DNA of 24,547 nucleotides from a virus: positions 11,099-35,645 of IMG/VR virus record IMGVR_UViG_3300029573_000021. The stretch is one strand, 5' to 3'. The notes under the pieces are model-generated. The model saw only the letters and a program-made list of their open reading frames with translations, was not told the origin of the DNA and searched no databases. Shown piece by piece: positions 1,001 through 24,547 of the stretch (its first letter is position 1; every line of letters starts with the position of its first letter). A program made the translations under genes and the position numbers.

Positions 1001-3172
1001 TTATGCTGGTCCGTAGGGGTAGAAGGTTCCTCCGAAGACCGGGATCTGTATCATGCCCAGGGCGTATTGCGTCACCTGGTCATCTTCGATGTCGGCAATC
1101 AGGAAGGAATAGTCGAAGTTGACGCCCGGTTTTTCTTCGGCAAGCATGATTGGGTACACCGTCCCCGGAATGCCGGAGACGTCAACGCCCGTCAATTTGG
1201 CGTCCTGGCCGAATTGGACGTTGAGCCATACTTCCCCGCTGGTCATCGGGAGTTTCACCCAGGAGGAGCCGGAACTGCCCCCCTGCGGGTATTTGCCGAG
1301 CAGATTTCCGTTCAGGTAGAGCGCGCCGGGCTTGATTTGCGCCCCGGTGATGGCTCCCTCCGTATCTTTCTGTACCCGCACCTGGAAGCCGTATTCCGGC
1401 GCGGGCGTGGCTTCCCCCGTCGCCGTCGTGATGTGCTGGCTGATAGTGGGAGATTCCGGCTTGGGGTCGTAGGTCAGGACAATTGTTTTCGGCGCGCCCT
1501 GCATGTTTTCCAGCGTGGAAGACTCGTGAGATTTGGCGTTGATGCTCCTCAATCTTATCCAGTCTTCTATGCTTAAATAGTTCAAAGCTCCATAGGACAA
1601 CGTAATGACGTTGGTCTGCAGGTCGCGGTTCACCGTCTGAATCATGGTGTTGATGTTCTGCCACTCTGGGTTTCCTCCCAGCAGCGAGACGCGGCGGCCC
1701 ATGTATTGGCGCGTCTGCGCTTCTCCCAGCGCGACAAAGGAAATCGTGCCGTCGTAAGGAAGTTCCTGCATGGATTCCCACACCGTTTTTGCAATGTCCC
1801 CATAGGGCACACCTTCCGACGGTTCCGACGATTCCTCTTCTTCCGGCCCGTTGGAGGGCTGCTCCCCGTTGTAGATGCCGTCGATGGGGTAGCTCGCAAA
1901 GGGGCGGTCCATGGTGACCAGATCCACCGAGAATTCTTCCCAAAAGCAGGGCACACCCTGCAAGGTCCCCACATTCTTGAATTTCTCCCGCCACTTGGCA
2001 GAGGCTCTTTCCGGGATGGCGAGACGCTGCTTGATGGTGGCATTGCACCACTTCGGCCTGATGGATTTGGTATGAATTTGGCCGTCCGTCAGTTCATAGC
2101 CCGTGGCCGTGATATTATAGCCTTTCGGCTTGTCTTCCTCCGTTTTGTTCCAGGGCTTCCCGGTGATGACTGGCTTCTTATCATAGGCCTCGAGGGCGTC
2201 CACGTCTTTCATCCATGGGAAATGATTTTTCCAGAAACTGTTGATCATGTCGTTCTGGTCAATCCGGGTCCCCGTCACTTTCATGCGCTGGTAGGACAGG
2301 CTGCCGGCCCTGGTTCCCTGTACCGGTTGAGGATCTTCTACCGGTTCTCCTGTAGAATTATACTTAGAATAATAGAAGTCTACGGACGTTCGGTAAACGA
2401 TGGAATGCGGTAAGGTCGGGTCTCCGTCTTCCGGGTATTTGGACAGGTAAGAGACGCGATAGCCGTTGCTTCCGGTGGTTTCGGCGACAATCGCCACGCA
2501 GGGAGGCACGAGGTCGGCGCGTGGGACAAGGGAAACGTCCATGGCTTTAACATCGTTGGAGGGCTGCAATGGCAGGGAGATAGGCGTCAGGACGTCATAG
2601 TCCGTGATGATCATCTTGGGCCGCGCGCCACTGTAGTCGTAGTACGTGACCATGCGGGGCGACCAGTGGCGGATGGATTGGAGCAGACTTCCAAGGGTGT
2701 CGCATGAGGCGTTCCATGGGATCAGCATTTTGTCGTCGCTGATCCGCAGTTCGTAGTCCGCGGGGTGGTGTTTGGCCAGATTCAGCACCCGGGAAAGGGC
2801 GGAGGAAATGCTTATTTTAGGAATGATTTCATTCCCGCCGCCGGTACTTTGCCACATCGAAAAGACCGGTTTCCATTCGGAATCAAGGGCAAAGCAGTTG
2901 TCCAGGTAATACCAGGGATCGGAAAAGACGATTTTCCAGGCACGGGATGAACCGCTGTAGGTCTTTTCGATGCTGGAAACGAGGCCGGCAAGAATGGTGT
3001 TCCCGTTTTGGGAGATGGTGACGGTGTCGAATTGCCGGAAGGGCAAGACCTCGTCCAGGGCGCGGACGGGATAAACCGCGGTAATGGTGGAGGTGGAAAA
3101 GCTTCTTTGCTCGTGATTGAGGCTCGACGGTTTGAGAGCCAGCAAATCATTGATGGTGATGTCGTGGTTCCT
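1001..3172 (-). CDS. large tail-tip / host-specificity protein (723 aa if AGG start at 3172; 714 aa if TTG at 3145)
   Basis: This is the only long ORF downstream of the tape measure gene. The reading frame is open back to the TAG of the upstream gene (3199-3197). There is no ATG or GTG in that stretch, but AGG is the 9th codon after that stop. The TTG at 3145 is the conservative alternative. Confidence 0.6.
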   Translation of the reverse strand, partial: RNHDITINDLLALKPSSLNHEQRSFSTSTITAVYPVRALDEVLPFRQFDTVTISQNGNTILAGLVSSIEKTYSGSSRAWKIVFSDPWYYLDNCFALDSEWKPVFSMWQSTGGGNEIIPKISISSALSRVLNLAKHHPADYELRISDDKMLIPWNASCDTLGSLLQSIRHWSPRMVTYYDYSGARPKMIITDYDVLTPISLPLQPSNDVKAMDVSLVPRADLVPPCVAIVAETTGSNGYRVSYLSKYPEDGDPTLPHSIVYRTSVDFYYSKYNSTGEPVEDPQPVQGTRAGSLSYQRMKVTGTRIDQNDMINSFWKNHFPWMKDVDALEAYDKKPVITGKPWNKTEEDKPKGYNITATGYELTDGQIHTKSIRPKWCNATIKQRLAIPERASAKWREKFKNVGTLQGVPCFWEEFSVDLVTMDRPFASYPIDGIYNGEQPSNGPEEEESSEPSEGVPYGDIAKTVWESMQELPYDGTISFVALGEAQTRQYMGRRVSLLGGNPEWQNINTMIQTVNRDLQTNVITLSYGALNYLSIEDWIRLRSINAKSHESSTLENMQGAPKTIVLTYDPKPESPTISQHITTATGEATPAPEYGFQVRVQKDTEGAITGAQIKPGALYLNGNLLGKYPQGGSSGSSWVKLPMTSGEVWLNVQFGQDAKLTGVDVSGIPGTVYPIMLAEEKPGVNFDYSFLIADIEDDQVTQYALGMIQIPVFGGTFYPYGPA

Positions 3173-3196
3173 GCTGCTTGTAAAAAGGTTAAGGTT

Positions 3197-3646
3197 CTAT
3201 TTATTCCTGTCCTGCATGTTTTTCAAGATATGGACGCATTCCGCAATCCGGTCGTAAATTTGCCCCATCCACAGGAAAAACATTAACGAAAAGAATCCAG
3301 ATAAAAGACAGGCAATGGACAAACCGACCAATTCATTTGTTATACAAACAAAAAATCCGATGATTCCAGCAACAGCTACAAATCCCCCTATCATAGGGAA
3401 ATAATAACCTATAAGGGTTGTAAAGGAAGGCGTTTGACTACTTGATGCCTTTGTCTTCGGTACTATTTTTTTATGATATTTCGCCAATACCTTCTCAAAC
3501 TCTTCCCATTCTTGCCCCCCCTCTTGAAAAATCATGGTTTTCGCGTTGATCTTTTTCTGGTTAAAATAATCTTCCAGAACCTCAAGCGAAACGGGACCTT
3601 CCGTTTTCCCATCAGCGATCGCAATGTAGTACATGTCCTGATTCAT
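3197..3646 (-). CDS. GYF_2-like domain membrane protein (149 aa), moron between tape measure and tail tip
   Basis: ATG start. The N-terminus YYIAIADGKTEGPVSLEVLEDYF...IFQEGGQEWEEFEKV resembles the GYF_2/DUF4339 fold. The C-terminal half has two hydrophobic helices (YFPMIGGFVAVAGIIGFFVCI and LSIACLLSGFFSLMFFLWM). GC content is markedly lower than in the flanking genes. Confidence 0.65.
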   Translation of the reverse strand: MNQDMYYIAIADGKTEGPVSLEVLEDYFNQKKINAKTMIFQEGGQEWEEFEKVLAKYHKKIVPKTKASSSQTPSFTTLIGYYFPMIGGFVAVAGIIGFFVCITNELVGLSIACLLSGFFSLMFFLWMGQIYDRIAECVHILKNMQDRNK

Positions 3647-3680
3647 GCTCTTGTTCTGATACGTTGATTATCCAAAAATG

Positions 3681-5681
3681 TCAAGATACGAGCCAGCCTG
3701 CCACCATATTGAGACCGTTTTTCTGTGCCTGGGACTCTTTTTCGAGCCGTTGAACTCGTGCCTCCATGGATTTGATCGCGGCACGATATTGATTTCCGTC
3801 GGAAGATTCCTTTTCTACCAGGGCAATGATGCGTTTCACTAAATCAAGCGTTTGTGCATAGGTGATTTTATTCTCGCCTCTTGAGGACAGTTCCTGCATT
3901 AATTTTTTCGAGAGAACCTCCATTTCGTTCTCGGTGACCCTGTTATCCTTGAAAGCGTCTTTGATGTACCTGATGATGGCTCTATAGGCTTCATTAATAT
4001 TGGATTTTCGTTCCCGCGCTCTTCCGCTGACATCTCTATCGGGTCTTGACAAGGCGTCGGTCAACGATTTGCTGAATCCGGCCAGGTTAACGTTCTCGAT
4101 GATATTGTCACGTTTGTCCCTCTGGTTCTTGGTTCGCTCTTTAAGCCTGGAGATTTCCTTTTTCAGTTCACGGACTTCGTTTTCCCTTTCCCGTATCTGA
4201 TCTTTGATAGCGTTTTCATTCTCCTTCTGTGCCTGGACAATCCTTTTTTGCTGTTCCACAGCCTCGTTCCTCTCCCGCTGCGCTTCATCAATTTTTTCTT
4301 CGGAAGCATTTATTTTTCGGACTTCTTCAAGCTGTTGCGTGCTTGTAGTTAAAGATTTCTCCGCTTCCGTTTGATCTTCTATCGCCTTTTTAAGCGATTC
4401 CTGCGCCTGTTCTACCGCTTTGTCTCTGTTCTTATATGCTTCACGCAACGCATCATCCGTGCTGACGTCATATCCTGCATCGACAAGCGCGTTATCAGAA
4501 GCCGTCCTTTGTTTTCTTAAAGCGTTCAGGCGATCTAACTGCACCCTTCCATTTCCTGCGGCTAATACATCTTCCATGAATTTCGAGGCTGTTCTAATTT
4601 CTGGGAAGAATGAATTGAACTTGGAATCAAATATTCCCACTTTCTGTAGAAATGTATTGTTTAAAGCAGAAGTATCGCCTCCATTTTCTATTAATTGCTT
4701 AATCCACTCTCTCATATCATTAGATGAGATTCTTCCAAGTGTCGTCCATCCTCCTGCTTGTTCTGCCCCATTTCGGCTTACTTTAGCTATAGAAAGCAAG
4801 TTATCAAATATTTGTTTTTCCGCATTAAGGATTTCTCCATTGAGCTTTTCCCGTTCCTGGTAGGATAAAATATTCTGGTCCTGCAATCCTCCCAAACGTT
4901 CGCTGTTTCTGTTGGTGGCTTCGGTTTTTGACGCTAAATCCCTTTCCGCGTTAGATACATTGATTCTGGCGGATTCTTCCTGTTCTTGTCGATGCCGGGC
5001 ACGGGCTCGAAGTCTAATGTCTTCCTGTTTGCCTTCAAAGAACAAACGCGCGGAAAAACTTTCAGGATCGCCGAACGCTCCGCTATAGTAATCAGTTTCC
5101 AGTTTCAACAAATCCGCCTGATCCTGATTGTCCAGAATCTTTGATTGCAGGTCCAGCAAACGCTGCTGCTCCCGTACAGATTCTTTTAATGCCTGGGCTT
5201 CTTCTTTTCGGTTTCCTGCTATTTTTGCCGTCAAATCATTGGACGTCTTTAAAGCCGCCTCATTATTGAAGGACGCGACGATTTCCTGGGATTCCTTAAT
5301 GGCTTCTTTTTGTTGTTCAAGGGCCTTAGCGAGTTCTTTGGATTTTGCTTCCGTGTTTCCCATCCACTCGTAAAGCTTCGCGCCGGCTAAGACGGCAAGG
5401 GAGACAGCCCCGGCGAGCCCTGCCCCCCCTCCGAAGCCCATCACAAGCCCTGGAATATTATTCATGATACCCCTGATGCCGTATTGCAAGTCGTCAAAAA
5501 AGTAGGCAGCCTGCAAGGCTCCCTGCCCCATATTCTTCACGCTCCGGGTTGCCTGCTGGCTGTCTTTATCCAGCTGCTCCGTAGACTTGTTCAGGGAGTC
5601 AATCTTCTGCTTTGCTTCTTCTACGCCTTTTCCGTCCAGCGTGGACTTGAGCTTGATTTCGATTTCTTTCTTGGTAGCCAT
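3681..5681 (-). CDS. tail tape measure protein (666 aa)
   Basis: The protein is long and rich in K/E/Q coiled coil. It has a Gly-rich hydrophobic segment (PGLVMGFGGGAGLAGAVSLAVLAGA). It sits after a small chaperone-like ORF and before the tail-tip gene. Confidence 0.8.
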   Translation of the reverse strand: MATKKEIEIKLKSTLDGKGVEEAKQKIDSLNKSTEQLDKDSQQATRSVKNMGQGALQAAYFFDDLQYGIRGIMNNIPGLVMGFGGGAGLAGAVSLAVLAGAKLYEWMGNTEAKSKELAKALEQQKEAIKESQEIVASFNNEAALKTSNDLTAKIAGNRKEEAQALKESVREQQRLLDLQSKILDNQDQADLLKLETDYYSGAFGDPESFSARLFFEGKQEDIRLRARARHRQEQEESARINVSNAERDLASKTEATNRNSERLGGLQDQNILSYQEREKLNGEILNAEKQIFDNLLSIAKVSRNGAEQAGGWTTLGRISSNDMREWIKQLIENGGDTSALNNTFLQKVGIFDSKFNSFFPEIRTASKFMEDVLAAGNGRVQLDRLNALRKQRTASDNALVDAGYDVSTDDALREAYKNRDKAVEQAQESLKKAIEDQTEAEKSLTTSTQQLEEVRKINASEEKIDEAQRERNEAVEQQKRIVQAQKENENAIKDQIRERENEVRELKKEISRLKERTKNQRDKRDNIIENVNLAGFSKSLTDALSRPDRDVSGRARERKSNINEAYRAIIRYIKDAFKDNRVTENEMEVLSKKLMQELSSRGENKITYAQTLDLVKRIIALVEKESSDGNQYRAAIKSMEARVQRLEKESQAQKNGLNMVAGWLVS

Positions 5682-20678: not shown

Positions 20679-21044
20679 GTGAAAAAGTGTCCTATATGCG
20701 GCAAGGATGTTCCGCCGCGCTACGGAGCGCGGGAAAGCGTATACTGCTCCCGCGCTTGCCTCAAGGCACACTATGACGCCGCCTGGGAAACTATCACCTG
20801 CCCCGTGTGCGGAAAGGAATTCCGCGCTAAAAAACTCTTTCGGCGGAAACATTGCTCTTATCCTTGCGCAAATGCGGACATGGCAGCGGCGCCGGATGGC
20901 GGGTACTTGCCGCCCCTGCCGTCCCGAAGGAATAAAAAAGGGCAGCCCCGAAGAACCGCCCTTTTTAAGGGAATGAGCGTTTCCGCTCGTGCTGATCTTG
21001 TGATCGTTTTAATCCACAGCCCCGGAGGGCTGACGTGTTCCTAG
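20679..21044 (+). CDS. tandem zinc-ribbon protein (two CPxCGK...(Y/H)CSxxC units, YacG/zf-FCS-like), 121 aa
   Basis: GTG start. The two units are CPICGKDVPPRYGARESVYCSRACLKAHYDAAW and CPVCGKEFRAKKLFRRKHCSYPC. The C-terminal 50 aa look poorly coding. They contain an A-tract/hairpin/T-tract at 20935-20966. Confidence 0.55.
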   Translation: MKKCPICGKDVPPRYGARESVYCSRACLKAHYDAAWETITCPVCGKEFRAKKLFRRKHCSYPCANADMAAAPDGGYLPPLPSRRNKKGQPRRTALFKGMSVSARADLVIVLIHSPGGLTCS

Positions 21045-21140
21045 AAAGAACAAATTACTTCTCTCATATTCTGCGCCAGGCCGCAAGCAAAAACGGAATG
21101 ACAACTTTTTTCACCTTTTTTCATTTTTTCTCTTGCATTC

Positions 21141-21233: not shown

Positions 21234-21557
21234 ATGAACGATAACAAAATCATCACCACGGAAGACGGAGAAGAAATCAACCTGACCGCTCTTGAACGTG
21301 AATTTGGCAGCTACAAGTTTGAAGGCAAGACCTACTATGCAGCGCGCCAGATGGAATACACCAACAGGGTTTTCCCTGGCTCCTATGCGGACAAATACGA
21401 AGACGGCAGCTATACGGAAGAATGGTCTGCTCCCGGCTATGATGCAGAAGGGAACAAGGTTGAAATCTTCATGGTCTTTGAACAAATGACGGGCGAAGAA
21501 ATTGAAGGAGAAAACCTCAACTGGACGCAGGACGCTTCCCGCGTTGAAGCTCTCTAA
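21234..21557 (+). CDS. small highly acidic protein (107 aa)
   Basis: ATG start. About a quarter of the residues are D or E, and the protein is rich in aromatic Y/F/W. It is followed by a strong hairpin and lies in the low-GC island. Confidence 0.6.
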   Translation: MNDNKIITTEDGEEINLTALEREFGSYKFEGKTYYAARQMEYTNRVFPGSYADKYEDGSYTEEWSAPGYDAEGNKVEIFMVFEQMTGEEIEGENLNWTQDASRVEAL

Positions 21558-21566
21558 ATAACCCCC

Positions 21567-21596
21567 AGGGGCGGCAAAGCCGCCCCTCCTTTCTCA
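21567..21596 (+). terminator. intrinsic terminator-like hairpin (AGGGGCGGC-AAA-GCCGCCCCT) followed by CCTTTCTC
   Basis: It has a 9-bp GC-rich stem, a 3-nt loop and a pyrimidine/T-rich tail. The next ATG is only 3 nt after the tail, so it may act as an attenuator rather than a full stop. Confidence 0.55.
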
Positions 21597-21598
21597 CT

Positions 21599-22903
21599 AT
21601 GACCGCACAAGAATTTATCGACTGGCTTCAAACTGCCAACAATCTTCCAAATCCTACCCAAGCTGTAAAAAGGGCCGCGCAGATGATGCGGGTGACGGAA
21701 GATGCTGTTTGGAAGTGGCTAAATACTAAAAAACCACATCCCACGCCTGAATACATGCAATTGCTCATGGAGTTATTGCATGAAAAATACCGAGAAAAGA
21801 GGTTTCACCGCATTATTTCTCACGAGCAGCGTGAAGAAATGCGGTCCATGTTGGGCAAAAAACCTGATCTGGAAATCGCCGAGCTACTCGGAATAGCGCG
21901 CGTCACGGTCCAGACTGAACGCTATAAATTAGGTATCAAAAAGTATTGCAGCCCTGAAGCAATCCGCATCCAACACGATGAAGAGCTTATTGCAGTGCTC
22001 GGAAAAATTCCTGACTCGGAGTGTGCCAAGAAGTTTGGATACTCAAATTCCAGAGTAGCCTACCTTAGAAAGAAATTAGGGATTAAGTCATATAGGGGGC
22101 CGCGTAAACCCCGTCAGCCACGAGACCCAAATAAACCACACAAGAAAAAAGAGTATCCCGAAGAGTTAATTAACATGCTTGGAAAGACCCCGGATGATGA
22201 AATTGCTAAAAAATTCGGTTATTCCAAGGCAGGAATTGCGCTTATTAGAAAAAAGATGGGCATTCCATCATTATCTGATACTAAATTCCCCGAAGAGAAA
22301 CGCGAAGAAATGCTATCCATGCTTGGGAAAGTTCCTGATAGCGAAATTGCTGAAAGGCTTGGAATATCGCTTAATGTTGTAGCGCGGAACCGTAGAAAAT
22401 TAAAAATTGCTCCAGCTCCATACTCTCCCATTAAGGATGCGGACAAGGATATAATTCTTAATTTATTGGGAAGAGTATCAGATTTAAAAATTGCAAAAAA
22501 AACAGGGTACAGCGTATATGTAATTAAAAAATTTAGAGAACAGAACAAAATTAAGCCTTTCAGTAAAAGCATTTTAGAAAGATTTTCACCGGACCAACGT
22601 AAAAAACTCTTATCTATGCTTGGGAAAGTTTATGATAGAGTAATAGCCGAAAAATTTAATATTGATGACGAGGCAGTAAGAAGAATTAGACAGAAATTGA
22701 ATGTTCCGGCATTACGTGAGGAAAAAAGCTTGCAAGAAACAATAGAAGGGGACGAATACATTAAATCCCTGCTGGGCACAATGACTGATAAAGAAGTCGC
22801 TAATAAAACAGGCAAATCAATACAAGTTATCGGAAAAGCAAGGAGAAAATTAAATATCCCGGCGTTTGATACAAGGGGGCGGTCTACAAAGAAACAATCT
22901 TGA
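21599..22903 (+). CDS. DNA-binding protein with an N-terminal HTH plus seven tandem HTH repeats (434 aa)
   Basis: The unit (M/L)LGK.PD.EIA.K.G.S...V...R.KL.I recurs 7 times at a period of about 45-60 aa. Examples are MLGKKPDLEIAELLGIARVTVQTERYKLGI and MLGKTPDDEIAKKFGYSKAGIALIRKKMGI. The unit resembles sigma-70 region 4 or a small HTH. GC content is about 40%. Confidence 0.75.
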   Translation: MTAQEFIDWLQTANNLPNPTQAVKRAAQMMRVTEDAVWKWLNTKKPHPTPEYMQLLMELLHEKYREKRFHRIISHEQREEMRSMLGKKPDLEIAELLGIARVTVQTERYKLGIKKYCSPEAIRIQHDEELIAVLGKIPDSECAKKFGYSNSRVAYLRKKLGIKSYRGPRKPRQPRDPNKPHKKKEYPEELINMLGKTPDDEIAKKFGYSKAGIALIRKKMGIPSLSDTKFPEEKREEMLSMLGKVPDSEIAERLGISLNVVARNRRKLKIAPAPYSPIKDADKDIILNLLGRVSDLKIAKKTGYSVYVIKKFREQNKIKPFSKSILERFSPDQRKKLLSMLGKVYDRVIAEKFNIDDEAVRRIRQKLNVPALREEKSLQETIEGDEYIKSLLGTMTDKEVANKTGKSIQVIGKARRKLNIPAFDTRGRSTKKQS

Positions 22904-22915
22904 TCTTTCCAAGAT

Positions 22916-22948
22916 AAAAACGCGCCCCCTATACGAGATTCCAGGGGG
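22916..22948 (-). terminator. hairpin CCCCCT-12 nt-AGGGGG followed on the minus strand by CGCGTTTTTAT; terminator of the replication operon, between convergent genes
   Basis: The stem is 22925-22930 / 22943-22948, and the T-run on the minus strand corresponds to 22916-22920. It is located between the stops at 22903 (+) and 22966 (-). Confidence 0.45.
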
Positions 22949-22965
22949 TATACGAGATTCCAGGG
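22930..22965. repeat. 17-bp direct repeat TATACGAGATTCCAGGG x2 (22930-22946 and 22949-22965)
   Basis: The two copies are identical and separated by GG. The first copy forms the loop and 3' arm of the terminator hairpin. Confidence 0.9.
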
Positions 22966-23706
22966 CTATTCCCGGAGGTTGTAGTTGATCTCACGGTACG
23001 ATTGCCAATCACACGTGATGATGATGCCGCAAAGGTGGATGCGGGAAACAATGGCTGGTCCAAGACGATCTTCCAGGGCTGTAGGGTTGTAGTTGGCGAT
23101 AAGGATGGTCGGCTTGCCGTTCTGGTGCCGGTAGTCAATGAGCCGTTCCAGCGCCGGGCCTGTAAAGTCCGTGTCCTTTACCTCGTGATACTCGTCCAGG
23201 ACCAGCAGATAAGGCGACTTGTAGCGGGCCATGACAGAGGATTCAGAGCCGCCGCCGTTGAACGTCTCCCTCAAAGCCATCGTGTAATCGTAAGCCTTGG
23301 AATAAAGGACGCGCTTCTTGCGCCGGTACATGACGCGGGCAAGAAACGTGCTTAAAACCGTTTTCCCGGTGCCGTAGCGTCCGTTTAGTACAATGATACT
23401 CCCAGGAGTCAAAACAAGGCGGTAGGCATCACGGAGGGCCTTCTTCCATGGTTCTCCGGTCACTTCGTCGAGGCAATCAATCGCCCGGCGAGGAAAGCCT
23501 CGGTCAACCAGGCCCAGGCGTTCATAGGTTGCCTTGCGTTCTTCCTCCCGCTGTTTCTCGGCGGCGAGCGCTTCCGCTTCCAGTTCTTCAATGCTTCTTC
23601 CGTCATCCGTGGCAAGCGCTGTCATGGATGCCAAGAGGCTTTCAATGTCGGCACCTTTGAGGGCGTGCCGGGCGTCAATGGGGTCGTCAGTCTGTCCAGA
23701 GTTCAT
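22966..23706 (-). CDS. DnaC / IstB-like AAA+ helicase loader (246 aa from ATG 23706; ORF track start 23754)
   Basis: It has Walker A (NGRYGTGKT) and Walker B (LLVLDEYHE). The ATG at 23706 gives a 20-nt overlap with the Rep stop, against 68 nt for 23754. Confidence 0.8.
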   Translation of the reverse strand: MNSGQTDDPIDARHALKGADIESLLASMTALATDDGRSIEELEAEALAAEKQREEERKATYERLGLVDRGFPRRAIDCLDEVTGEPWKKALRDAYRLVLTPGSIIVLNGRYGTGKTVLSTFLARVMYRRKKRVLYSKAYDYTMALRETFNGGGSESSVMARYKSPYLLVLDEYHEVKDTDFTGPALERLIDYRHQNGKPTILIANYNPTALEDRLGPAIVSRIHLCGIIITCDWQSYREINYNLRE

Positions 23707-24454
23707 CTCTTCGTGATGGTTTAGGTGTTGATTTTGATGCGGTTCCCGCGGCATTGGCGGGTTTCAATCCGGCATCGGCAACATTGTTCCGGGCCCAGGT
23801 AGCGGCGTATTGGCGGGCCAGCGGTCGCCAATCCGAGAGAGGCACGCCGTGCCTGTTCCGCCACCCAACGGCGGACTGTTCGTCGAAAAAACGTTCGGCA
23901 CACCGTGTCAGCTCGTCTCCGATCGGGTGTAAAGCCTGGGCGGCCATAAAACGGTCCACCTCGGAAACGTCCTGCGGAAATTGGCGGACTTCGCGCCCGG
24001 TTGTAGTTGTAGTAGTAGTATTATCTTCTCTTCTCTTCTCTGGTAACGGTTTTTGTAACGCTCCGAGCGTTACATTTGCGTTACATGTTTTTGTAACTCG
24101 CTCATTATGAGCTTTTCTACTATTCGCAACACGGCGGTTCGTATTGGCCCTATTTTTAGCGGTTTGGCCGTTGTGGCGGTCAAAATTGGGGATTGAAAGG
24201 AGGCCCTCGCGTCCATTCAACCAGCCGACTTTGACAAGCCCAGCGGCGAAACCGGGGCAGAATACGAGACGGTCGAGAAACGAATTTGTAACGGTGATGG
24301 CGTTACCAGAGACGGATTGCTGATCGGCCCAAATCCAGAGGCGAAGAAGCTTGCCAACCACGGCATCCTGATCAATTCCAAGGATGCCGGCCAGCTTCAC
24401 CACTTCCGGTTTGTCGGGCGTCGTGTGTTCAACTTTGATCCAGTCTCCGGCCAT
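23687..24454 (-). CDS. phage replisome organizer / replication initiator-like protein (255 aa)
   Basis: The N-terminus WIKVEHTTPDKPEVVKLAGILGIDQDAVVGKLLRLWIWADQQ resembles phage replisome-organizer N-terminal domains. A poly-Thr linker follows, then a C-terminal domain. It lies immediately upstream of the DnaC-like gene. Confidence 0.65.
   Translation of the reverse strand: MAGDWIKVEHTTPDKPEVVKLAGILGIDQDAVVGKLLRLWIWADQQSVSGNAITVTNSFLDRLVFCPGFAAGLVKVGWLNGREGLLSIPNFDRHNGQTAKNRANTNRRVANSRKAHNERVTKTCNANVTLGALQKPLPEKRREDNTTTTTTTGREVRQFPQDVSEVDRFMAAQALHPIGDELTRCAERFFDEQSAVGWRNRHGVPLSDWRPLARQYAATWARNNVADAGLKPANAAGTASKSTPKPSRRDELWTD
23999..24098. repeat. origin-like repeat cluster inside the rep gene
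   Basis: The cluster holds (GTA/GTT)n, then (CTTCT)x3 at 24025-24039. There is a perfect 10-1-10 palindrome TGTAACGCTC-C-GAGCGTTACA at 24054-24074. GCGTTACAT occurs twice with an 11-nt period (24067 and 24078). GTTTTTGTAAC occurs twice (24049 and 24087). Five GTAAC/GTTAC cores fall within 55 bp. Confidence 0.45.
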
Positions 24455-24455
24455 A

Positions 24456-24547
24456 CTAAAAAAGCGTCAGTTGGGGGTTGTAGTTAATCCACAGGCATTC
24501 CACACGTGGACTGCTCATGTTGGAAATGGTCTTGATGGAGTCCTTGT
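24456..24547 (-). CDS. 3' end of an upstream minus-strand ORF (partial; ...KDSIKTISNMSSPRVECLWINYNPQLTLF*)
   Basis: The frame is open to the window edge. The TAG stop at 24458-24456 lies 1 nt before the Rep ATG (TAGTATG), which suggests operon coupling. Function is unknown. Confidence 0.35.
   Translation of the reverse strand, partial: KDSIKTISNMSSPRVECLWINYNPQLTLF

Follow-up and report, generated by a model that had tools for sequence, protein, structure and literature searches.

A seven-unit helix-turn-helix protein of an Akkermansia prophage, probably a non-enzymatic DNA binder

What does a protein that consists almost wholly of tandem helix-turn-helix (HTH) units do for the phage that encodes it? 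This question is raised by a gene at positions 21599–22903 (+ strand) of the DNA analysed here, a stretch of 24,547 nt (the window) that forms the last 24.5 kb of the 35.6-kb IMG/VR virus record IMGVR_UViG_3300029573_000021. The window DNA is part of an Akkermansia prophage; Akkermansia phage DTMo-2021a is 88% identical to it in the late region, and one close homologue of the 434-amino-acid (aa) gene product is named from Akkermansia massiliensis. The open reading frame (ORF; P0001) starts with an ATG that is common to the homologues, the N-termini of which read MTAQEF or MTIQEF, and encodes a very basic protein (isoelectric point (pI) 9.9; K+R = 92, D+E = 57), which we call the poly-HTH protein. 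Our analysis suggests that it is probably a non-enzymatic DNA binder with a long footprint, which would act by occupancy.

The motif LG[KRT] occurs at residues 85, 134, 194, 242, 290, 341, and 392 of the protein. Seven 48-aa segments centred on this motif aligned without gaps, with L13, G14, D18, A22, and R36 being invariant and positions 13, 14, 18, 22, 32, 36, and 41 forming a conserved scaffold. When each unit was compared to a profile of the other six (leave-one-out), it scored 37–65 bits (E 1e-10 to 2e-19), while the best score of the shuffled controls (1000 per unit) was ≤8.4 bits. Since the leave-one-out scores far exceeded those of the shuffled sequences, we concluded that the seven repeats are real. 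The ORF with an N-terminal HTH and seven tandem units, as described in the initial annotation, is thus present. The annotation had given a unit length of about 30 aa. This holds for the conserved core, but the complete unit also includes the preceding helix and the linker, so that the true period is 48–60 aa (48–51 aa in the array, except from unit 2 to unit 3, where the long basic linker extends it to 60 aa).

All parts of the protein are encoded on the + strand. The N-terminal Cro/YdaS-like HTH domain with its four helices (aa 1–72, positions 21599–21814) was delimited by weak family matches and the structure model. The unit alignment and the leave-one-out test placed unit 1 at aa 73–120 (21815–21958), unit 2 at aa 122–169 (21962–22105), unit 5 at aa 278–325 (22430–22573), and unit 6 at aa 329–376 (22583–22726). 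Also defined by the unit alignment were unit 3 (aa 182–229, 22142–22285), which is duplicated in the homologue P0005, unit 4 (aa 230–277, 22286–22429), which was modelled singly, and unit 7 (aa 380–427, 22736–22879), the unit best kept among the homologues. An extra basic, proline-rich linker, recognised from the model and the homologues, lies between units 2 and 3 (aa 170–181, 22106–22141; KPRQPRDPNKPH within RGPRKPRQPRDPNKPHKKK). This extra linker is disordered in the model and differs in length among the homologues.

An AlphaFold2 model of the full-length protein with 15 homologues (predicted local distance difference test (pLDDT) 75, predicted template modelling score (pTM) 0.27) consisted of a four-helix N-terminal domain (residues 3–68) followed by seven three-helix units, with low-confidence linkers between them. 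A model of unit 4 alone, with the seven-unit alignment as input, reached a pLDDT of 92 and comprised helix 1, the LGK turn, helix 2, and helix 3. The unit is therefore modelled as a plain tri-helical HTH without a wing, and the chain as beads on a string, which are connected by flexible, mostly basic linkers.

A structure search with the AlphaFold model, which the initial annotation had recommended, resulted in generic HTH matches in the PDB, none of them significant, and in multi-HTH phage proteins among the predicted viral structures of BFVD. With the full-length model, Foldseek found nothing in the PDB at E ≤0.001, and the top entries were unrelated multi-helix proteins. The absence of a full-length match is expected for a beads-on-a-string model with a pTM of 0.27. 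The single unit matched only generic HTH and winged HTH (wHTH) structures of the PDB (E >0.6), and no subfamily could be assigned. In BFVD, the matches of the whole chain were to other phage proteins with multiple HTHs (E down to 6.6e-13) as well as to a 'D5 protein' and to several endonucleases. Sequence profiles gave a similar picture for the PDB: nothing was significant for the full-length profile (top match GerE, E 0.038) or for the unit profile (LrpA, E 0.0038 over 19 residues; sigma-54 RpoN-box domain, E 0.057).

In Pfam, the poly-HTH protein matched HTH families only (HTH_23, 2.6e-10; HTH_28, 2.3e-07; also HTH_AsnC). Pfam and NCBIfam hold no dedicated curated model for the unit or the architecture, and the matches there were to generic HTH models or marginal. 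Among the PHROGs, phrog_323 ('transcriptional regulator, D5-like') was matched with E 4.6e-26 in three stretches, repeat on repeat, and phrog_12058 (unknown function) with E 1.1e-21; PHROGs of homing endonucleases were matched more weakly. Matches to endonuclease families were restricted to the repeat region, and searches of Pfam, PHROG, NCBIfam, and PADLOC detected no GIY-YIG, HNH, LAGLIDADG, or other enzymatic domain in the 434 aa. Pfam NUMOD1 (PF07453) did not match the protein at E up to 10.

A tblastn search of the phage collection led to GIY-YIG and other homing endonucleases of Vibrio phages. The unit profile recognised three units in the tail of the GIY-YIG endonuclease of Vibrio phage 1.170.O (AUR92327.1), e.g., WNELLGTKTDRVLAEDLGYSNGTIASRRKSLGIPSY. 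Two of these units were found at E 1e-13 to 1e-16, and the third was weaker (8.5e-08 with a broader profile). The N-terminal 100 residues of the 1.170.O enzyme match homing-endonuclease families. Because of the match to this tail, we consider the DNA-binding module of homing endonucleases to be the nearest functionally understood relative of the unit. T5 D5 (T5.118, 255 aa), a protein of about four tandem HTH-like units, was matched by BLASTP with E 9e-4, repeat on repeat, and by the unit profile with E ~1e-5 over 15 residues (7.6e-4 with a broader profile). T5 D5 and PHROG 323 thus appear from the sequence matches to be distant relatives.

The matches of the N-terminal domain were weak and below curated cut-offs (PF15943, Cro/YdaS-type, E 0.0035; phrog_16553, 'transcriptional repressor', E 0.008). 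The initial annotation had described this domain as excisionase-like. We found no excisionase match, the matches of the N-terminus being of the Cro/YdaS and repressor types, and the match to HTH_17 was located in unit 1.

A search with the unit profile, which covered 1.84 billion cluster representatives, yielded 6,864 proteins at E ≤1e-3, 2,900 at ≤1e-10, and 444 at ≤1e-30. The unit was found on phages, conjugative plasmids, and chromosomes. The top 143 matches had a median of 7 units (range 3–19), a period of 43–53 aa, and 74% of their length in units; extra domains were rare among them, with one fusion to a ResIII/Helicase_C helicase. The largest number of units per chain (19) was present in a 934-aa 'hypothetical protein' of Pseudomonas guariconensis. 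Homologues occurred on 58 plasmids, mostly conjugative plasmids of Pseudomonas, at up to nine places per megaplasmid, and all were annotated as hypothetical. The repeat of this family follows the pattern LLGxxxD..IA..xG.S...V...R..LGIP. The poly-HTH protein shares with this repeat family the period of 43–53 aa, the conserved L-G, D, A, and R, and the coverage of most of its length by units. The architecture, which had not been recognised as a known family, is indeed uncatalogued in Pfam and NCBIfam and has no dedicated model, but its repeat is that of homing-endonuclease tails, PHROG 323 and T5 D5 are distantly related, and thousands of uncharacterised proteins share it, so that it is not unique.

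Two distant homologues stood in different surroundings. P0034 (533 aa, 9 units; L026:6971-9602) directly follows an AcrVA2-like gene on an element that also carries ParB_N, SSB, VRR_NUC, and DNA methylase genes. P0033 (L018:1-8104) lies in a 5.2-Mb chromosome and adjoins helicase, MZB (DUF1998), and PLD genes (DISARM-like), near VapBC.

We then compared the gene among related loci. Between the window and locus L013, which has the same synteny (as does L014) and nine units, identity was 94% for TerL, 90% for DnaC, 87% for TerS, and 81% for the acidic gene located upstream, and 47% for the poly-HTH protein. By the method of Nei-Gojobori, the ratio of nonsynonymous to synonymous substitutions (dN/dS) was 0.24–0.28 for the whole poly-HTH gene and 0.26–0.30 for the array, as compared to 0.05 for TerL, 0.10 for DnaC and TerS, and 0.16–0.18 for the acidic gene. 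The strongest constraint within the gene was seen for the N-domain, with a dN/dS of 0.07–0.14 in two of four comparisons and 0.23 in a near-identical pair. The homologues were intact, and the frame was open down to 47% identity. The dN/dS values of 0.24–0.28 indicate purifying selection on the poly-HTH gene, which argues that it is functional. As judged from these alignments, it changes several times faster than its neighbours.

The comparison with L021 showed an N-domain that was nearly identical (dN 0.03, dS 0.43) and an array that was far more diverged (dS 1.27). This difference in dS indicates that the gene is itself a mosaic. The number of units varied from 4 to 9 among the variants, which confirms the variation in repeat number that the initial annotation had proposed to look for, and hybrid and duplicated units were also present. 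Four-unit variants, which are otherwise 98%–100% identical, contain a hybrid unit composed of units 1 and 4 and arose by deletion between the DNA repeats D2, the copies of which are 71% identical. A single lineage included versions with 6, 7, and 9 units (P0024, P0021, and P0017). Besides the duplicated unit 3, P0005 carries three extra copies of the N-domain. This 728-aa protein (L015:8001-10187) consists of four tandem Cro-like N-domains followed by eight HTH units. The four copies in P0005 imply that the N-domain is itself a repeatable module.

The poly-HTH gene is not a constant part of these phages. The genome of DTMo-2021a is complete and has no match to the protein at any place; its late region is shared as far as the first base of TerS, where a different replication gene follows directly. 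In L024/L025, a common variant with the same backbone, the corresponding + strand block comprises a 93-aa acidic gene and a 69-aa ORF (L024:5322-5531, +). This ORF is 50% identical to residues 1–71 of the window protein (E 1e-19) and stops where the array would start. The public gene call at L024:5322-5531 places a 70-aa ORF on the - strand; the 69-aa Cro-like homologue is on the + strand. The array-less ORF of L024/L025 shows that the resident gene is a small Cro-like regulator and that the seven-unit array is a C-terminal addition. L021 has DnaB and not DnaC as the right-hand neighbour. L015 and L019 belong to a different phage type. Their block of Zn-ribbon gene, acidic gene, and array lies downstream of the gene for an S24 CI-like repressor, has the same orientation as this gene, and converges with the lysis genes. 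L020 represents a third context, in which the array stands behind an unrelated acidic protein.

Composition and orientation also set the gene apart. Its GC content is 40%, as compared to 54%–62% for TerL, TerS, DnaC, Rep, and the head and tail genes, which bears out the island of about 40% GC in the initial annotation; at third codon positions, the GC content (GC3) is 0.36 for the poly-HTH gene and 0.54–0.77 for the core genes. Recoding of the protein with the codon usage of the core genes would give a GC content of 0.52, and the low GC content is therefore mostly due to synonymous codon choice and not just to a lysine-rich protein. All long window ORFs that match phage virion, lysis, or replication families (including endolysin, tail fibre, head protease, terminase, DnaC-like loader, and replication initiator) are on the - strand. 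The opposite orientation of the poly-HTH gene had been noted correctly. It is the last gene of a + strand block of three (Zn-ribbon gene, acidic 107-aa gene, and poly-HTH gene), which is flanked by TerS, where the late operon starts, and by the DnaC-like gene, where the early operon ends. The poly-HTH gene is antisense to both lytic operons of the window. The absence from DTMo-2021a, the 69-aa version in L024/L025, the different sites elsewhere, and the foreign-looking codon GC all agree with the horizontal acquisition that had been suggested. From these comparisons, we classify the poly-HTH gene as an accessory gene of the 'moron' type, which is exchanged horizontally.

A GC hairpin (GGGGCGGC-AAA-GCCGCCCC, positions 21568–21586, + strand), which was read from the sequence, lies 12 nt upstream of the ATG. 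The hairpin is conserved in six related loci (L010, L013, L015, L019, L021, and L024), in L024 with a changed stem sequence. In L013 and L015, it is followed by a T-run and represents a textbook intrinsic terminator. The T-run is interrupted in the window, and for this reason the terminator scan missed the hairpin. The hairpin probably acts as an attenuator that separates the HTH gene from the acidic gene and would keep expression of the former low. Since the gap between hairpin and ATG is too short for a promoter, the poly-HTH gene is probably read by terminator read-through of the acidic gene transcript, which would result in a low dose of the protein. A scan for consensus promoters resulted in nothing beyond chance. 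T-tracts phased at 10 bp (ACTTTTTTC, 3.4 copies) are present at 21104–21134 in an AT-rich region upstream of the acidic gene and could be bent promoter DNA.

The HTH-only matches in Pfam, the homology to nuclease tails, the PHROG 323 match, the BFVD matches, and the lack of a catalytic domain together led us to favour a role in DNA binding by occupancy. In each unit, helix 3 would insert into the major groove, and contacts to the backbone or the minor groove may come from the invariant Arg36 and the basic linkers. In this way, the chain would cover a long stretch of duplex DNA, about 70–90 bp if the units bind successive turns, and would repress, silence, or shield the bound DNA without cutting it. 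The dose of the protein would be kept low by the hairpin or terminator that precedes the start codon by 12 nt. The position of the gene, antisense to the lytic operons here and downstream of a CI-type repressor gene in other phages, would fit expression outside the lytic operons. The initial annotation had considered that the protein could wrap or coat DNA or recognise an iterated site. Coating of DNA or binding of a long site is still the most plausible activity. An iterated target was not supported: the repeat and tandem-repeat scans of the window revealed no seven-fold array and only a 17-bp duplication (22930–22965), the T-tracts at 21104–21134, and the iterons of the rep gene. The seven recognition helices are all different, and this argues against a simple repeated DNA site.

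The first turns of helix 3 are the usual site of base contacts in HTH proteins. Positions 29, 31, and 34, which belong to the first two turns of this helix, were the least conserved among the orthologues and had no consensus among the seven units. Several points weigh against the proposed occupancy function. Every functional step is deduced from sequence or from models. The HTH binding mode is assumed from the general fold, as the structure searches of the PDB gave no significant match, and three-helix units of the HTH type may also mediate protein-protein contacts. The dN/dS of 0.74–0.87 at the helix-3 positions is inflated, since the positions were chosen for their variability in an alignment that included the compared sequences. 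Hypervariable recognition positions would be compatible with a change in specificity, but equally with relaxed binding that is non-specific.

Regarding the biological role, the most attractive sub-hypothesis, to which we give only tentative credit, is that of an exclusion or silencing factor in lysogeny. As a defence factor expressed by the prophage, the array would coat or silence the DNA of competing phages or other invaders, which we regard as possible rather than probable. The accessory and mobile nature of the gene, its fast diversification and unit turnover, and its antisense orientation to the lytic operons would be in agreement with such a role. In L015 and L019, the array follows the CI-type repressor gene on the same strand, comparable to rexAB of lambda. 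The lambda genes rexAB follow cI. The distant homologue P0033 adjoins the DISARM-like helicase-MZB-PLD genes and VapBC. Furthermore, 'poly-(w)HTH systems' were recently described as fast-diversifying tandem wHTH arrays, some of them effector-less, and were proposed to coat invasive nucleic acids (bioRxiv 10.64898/2026.10.19.760177). However, the PADLOC defence models gave no significant match for the protein (best mad1, E 1e-4 over 25 residues; 'HEase', 3.7e-4) and none for its neighbours, and no ParA or effector gene was found near the poly-HTH gene. The unit lacks a wing, its likeness to the wHTH domains of the preprint is one by description, and homologues also occur in anti-defence-like regions or accessory regions of plasmids.

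The array may instead coat the element's own incoming or replicating DNA and protect it against host nucleases. The position of P0034 directly behind the AcrVA2-like gene, on an element with ParB, SSB, and orphan methylases, and the homologues on the 58 mostly conjugative plasmids with up to nine places per megaplasmid speak for this anti-defence role. We nevertheless consider it unlikely, because the support from context comes from relatives with 28%–30% identity and no early-injected or leading position was identified in the Akkermansia phages. In addition, coating in stoichiometric amounts would require a large quantity of the protein, but the terminator in front of the ATG points to low expression.

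We judged it quite unlikely that the protein is a core regulator like T5 D5, that is, a cooperative binder of duplex DNA needed for replication and for the switch from early to late transcription. According to the annotation in the T5 record, D5 binds DNA, and both replication and late transcription require it. The match to PHROG 323, the tandem HTH-like units of T5 D5 with their repeat-on-repeat BLASTP match, and the location of the gene between DnaC and TerS, i.e., between the replication module and the late operon, would be consistent with this function. However, DTMo-2021a lacks a copy despite sharing the late region, L024/L025 have only the 69-aa N-domain, and the block is at a different site in L015 and L019. 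This absence from close relatives argues, on genomic grounds, against a core regulator. In addition, the unit profile barely detected D5 as compared to its E of 1e-13 to 1e-16 for the endonuclease tail.

The initial annotation had likened the unit to sigma-70 region 4 or a minimal HTH and had proposed that it redirects host RNA polymerase. An array of minimal HTH units is what we found; the resemblance to sigma region 4 could not be confirmed. Mimicry of sigma-70 region 4, or of the sigma-54 RpoN-box, by which the units would titrate or re-aim the host polymerase, is very unlikely. The Sigma70_r4_2 match was marginal (E 5e-6, 26.4 bits versus a cut-off of 25.7 bits), and the RpoN-box domain was the second-best PDB sequence match of the unit profile at its non-significant E of 0.057. 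The sigma matches were limited to the generic 19-residue HTH core, Sigma70_r4 reached 17.2 bits versus a cut-off of 24.1 bits, and HTH_23, HTH_28, and HTH_AsnC scored equally well or better. The structure searches showed no preference for sigma factors, and the unit also serves as the DNA-binding tail of a nuclease.

Hardly credible, finally, is a functionless relic of a homing endonuclease, decaying after the loss of its nuclease domain, which the repeat shared with the GIY-YIG tail, the neighbouring Zn-ribbon with its similarity to HNH segments, and the low-GC island at a module junction might suggest, but against which stand the frame that is open across homologues down to 47% identity, the dN/dS of 0.24–0.28, the regulator-type HTH in place of a nuclease remnant at the N-terminus, and the thousands of array-only proteins in cellular genomes and plasmids.

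For this phage, we conclude that the poly-HTH gene is an optional passenger and that its product is unlikely to be the origin-binding protein, the late activator, or a sigma decoy.

The two other genes of the + strand block are located upstream. The acidic gene (21234–21557, +) encodes a protein of 107 aa with a pI of 4.1, which corresponds to the C-terminal half of 196-aa proteins in L019 and L021. About 40 variants were found, the named ones from Akkermansia, and they occur with or without the array. The acidic protein as an obligate partner of the array (DNA mimic or antitoxin) was rejected, because L023 and L024/L025 have the acidic gene but no array and L020 has an unrelated acidic protein in front of the array. 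The Zn-ribbon gene, the first of the block, is truncated to 121 aa in the window (20679–21044, +). Its relatives have 172–189 aa (L013:6813-7331, L015:6637-7206, L019:7378-7947, and an uncalled ORF with GTG start in L021). The window version matches these longer homologues only over the first ~70 residues and is missing the C-terminal domain of ~110 aa; its tail is read from sequence that is downstream and out of frame in L021. The Zn-ribbon protein resembles Zn-binding segments of HNH endonucleases (phrog_1271, ~1e-10).

On the other side, the poly-HTH gene meets the convergent DnaC-like gene at 22925–22965. Between the two stop codons, an exact 17-bp direct duplication (TATACGAGATTCCAGGG) is located at 22930–22946 and 22949–22965 with a period of 19, and a third copy with 76% identity is present at 23062–23078. 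No obvious S24 repressor gene was seen outside the window in the 35.6-kb record, and relatives without the array share this layout. L015 and L019 carry the CI-like repressor in addition to the array, which bears on the array as sole repressor.

A second low-GC stretch (0.42–0.49) was observed at window positions 3000–5500 with the - strand ORFs 3197–3646 and 3681–5681, which have no PHROG match and occupy the distal end of the tail module. Outside the window, positions 647–2861 of the record, within its region 1–2907, hold a second, diverged gene set (TerS-like, MarR-like, DnaC-like, and Rep-like). Its DnaC-like and Rep-like proteins are 30% and 55% identical to their counterparts in the window, and its TerS-like gene had no significant match to the window TerS. 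A 51-bp sequence (92%) is common to the regions upstream of both rep genes (record 35548–35598, corresponding to window 24450–24500). The 35.6-kb record may be longer than one genome, or two phage variants may have been joined.

As a kind of protein, tandem HTH DNA binders of mobile elements are already known in outline; T5 D5, the tails of homing endonucleases, and the poly-HTH systems that were proposed recently are examples. We found neither this unit nor its fusion with a Cro-like regulator in any database model or paper. The unit is present in thousands of protein clusters, among them those of prophages that are common in Akkermansia, a gut bacterium. Should the arrays bind long sites via their variable helices, they would represent a widespread tool of mobile elements to silence, shield, or mark DNA without cutting and a possible scaffold for engineered DNA binders. 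One may speculate further, although we think it rather unlikely, that the 48-aa unit is a modular DNA reader. Each unit would read a few bp by the hypervariable start of helix 3, and arrays of 3–19 units would be put together, shuffled, and changed in size to fit long arbitrary sites and be used as nuclease-free occupancy devices or as targeting tails of endonucleases. The unit would then be a natural HTH counterpart of zinc-finger and TALE arrays, with a decipherable code.

Among known proteins, the small phage regulators of the Cro/YdaS type resemble the N-terminal 72 residues by weak matches, but the N-domain of the window protein is fused to a 362-aa array. The poly-(w)HTH systems likewise have six or more fast-diversifying HTH-type domains in one polypeptide and variable N-terminal extensions, and some are effector-less. 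In contrast, the preprint describes their domains as winged HTH and links them to genes for ParA and effectors, while the unit of the window protein is wingless; this comparison is based on the published description. T5 D5 is also a phage protein built almost wholly from tandem HTH-like units. It differs by having about four units with a longer period and no Cro-like N-domain, and it is annotated as required, whereas the window gene is dispensable among relatives. D5 was reported to be mildly toxic if expressed alone, and an AlphaFold3 model predicted binding of its HTH to the multicopy single-stranded DNA (msDNA) of retron-Kva2 (PMC13405049). The endonuclease of Vibrio phage 1.170.O (AUR92327.1) and the 'homing endonuclease' of Vibrio phages eugene and helene have the same repeat (W..LLGT..D..LA..LGYS..TI..RRK.LGIP.Y) as the window protein. 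Tails of homing endonucleases are likewise composed of modular units and linkers, which suit a long DNA site. Compared to the 1.170.O enzyme, the window protein has seven units instead of three and a Cro-like N-domain in a chain without a nuclease domain.

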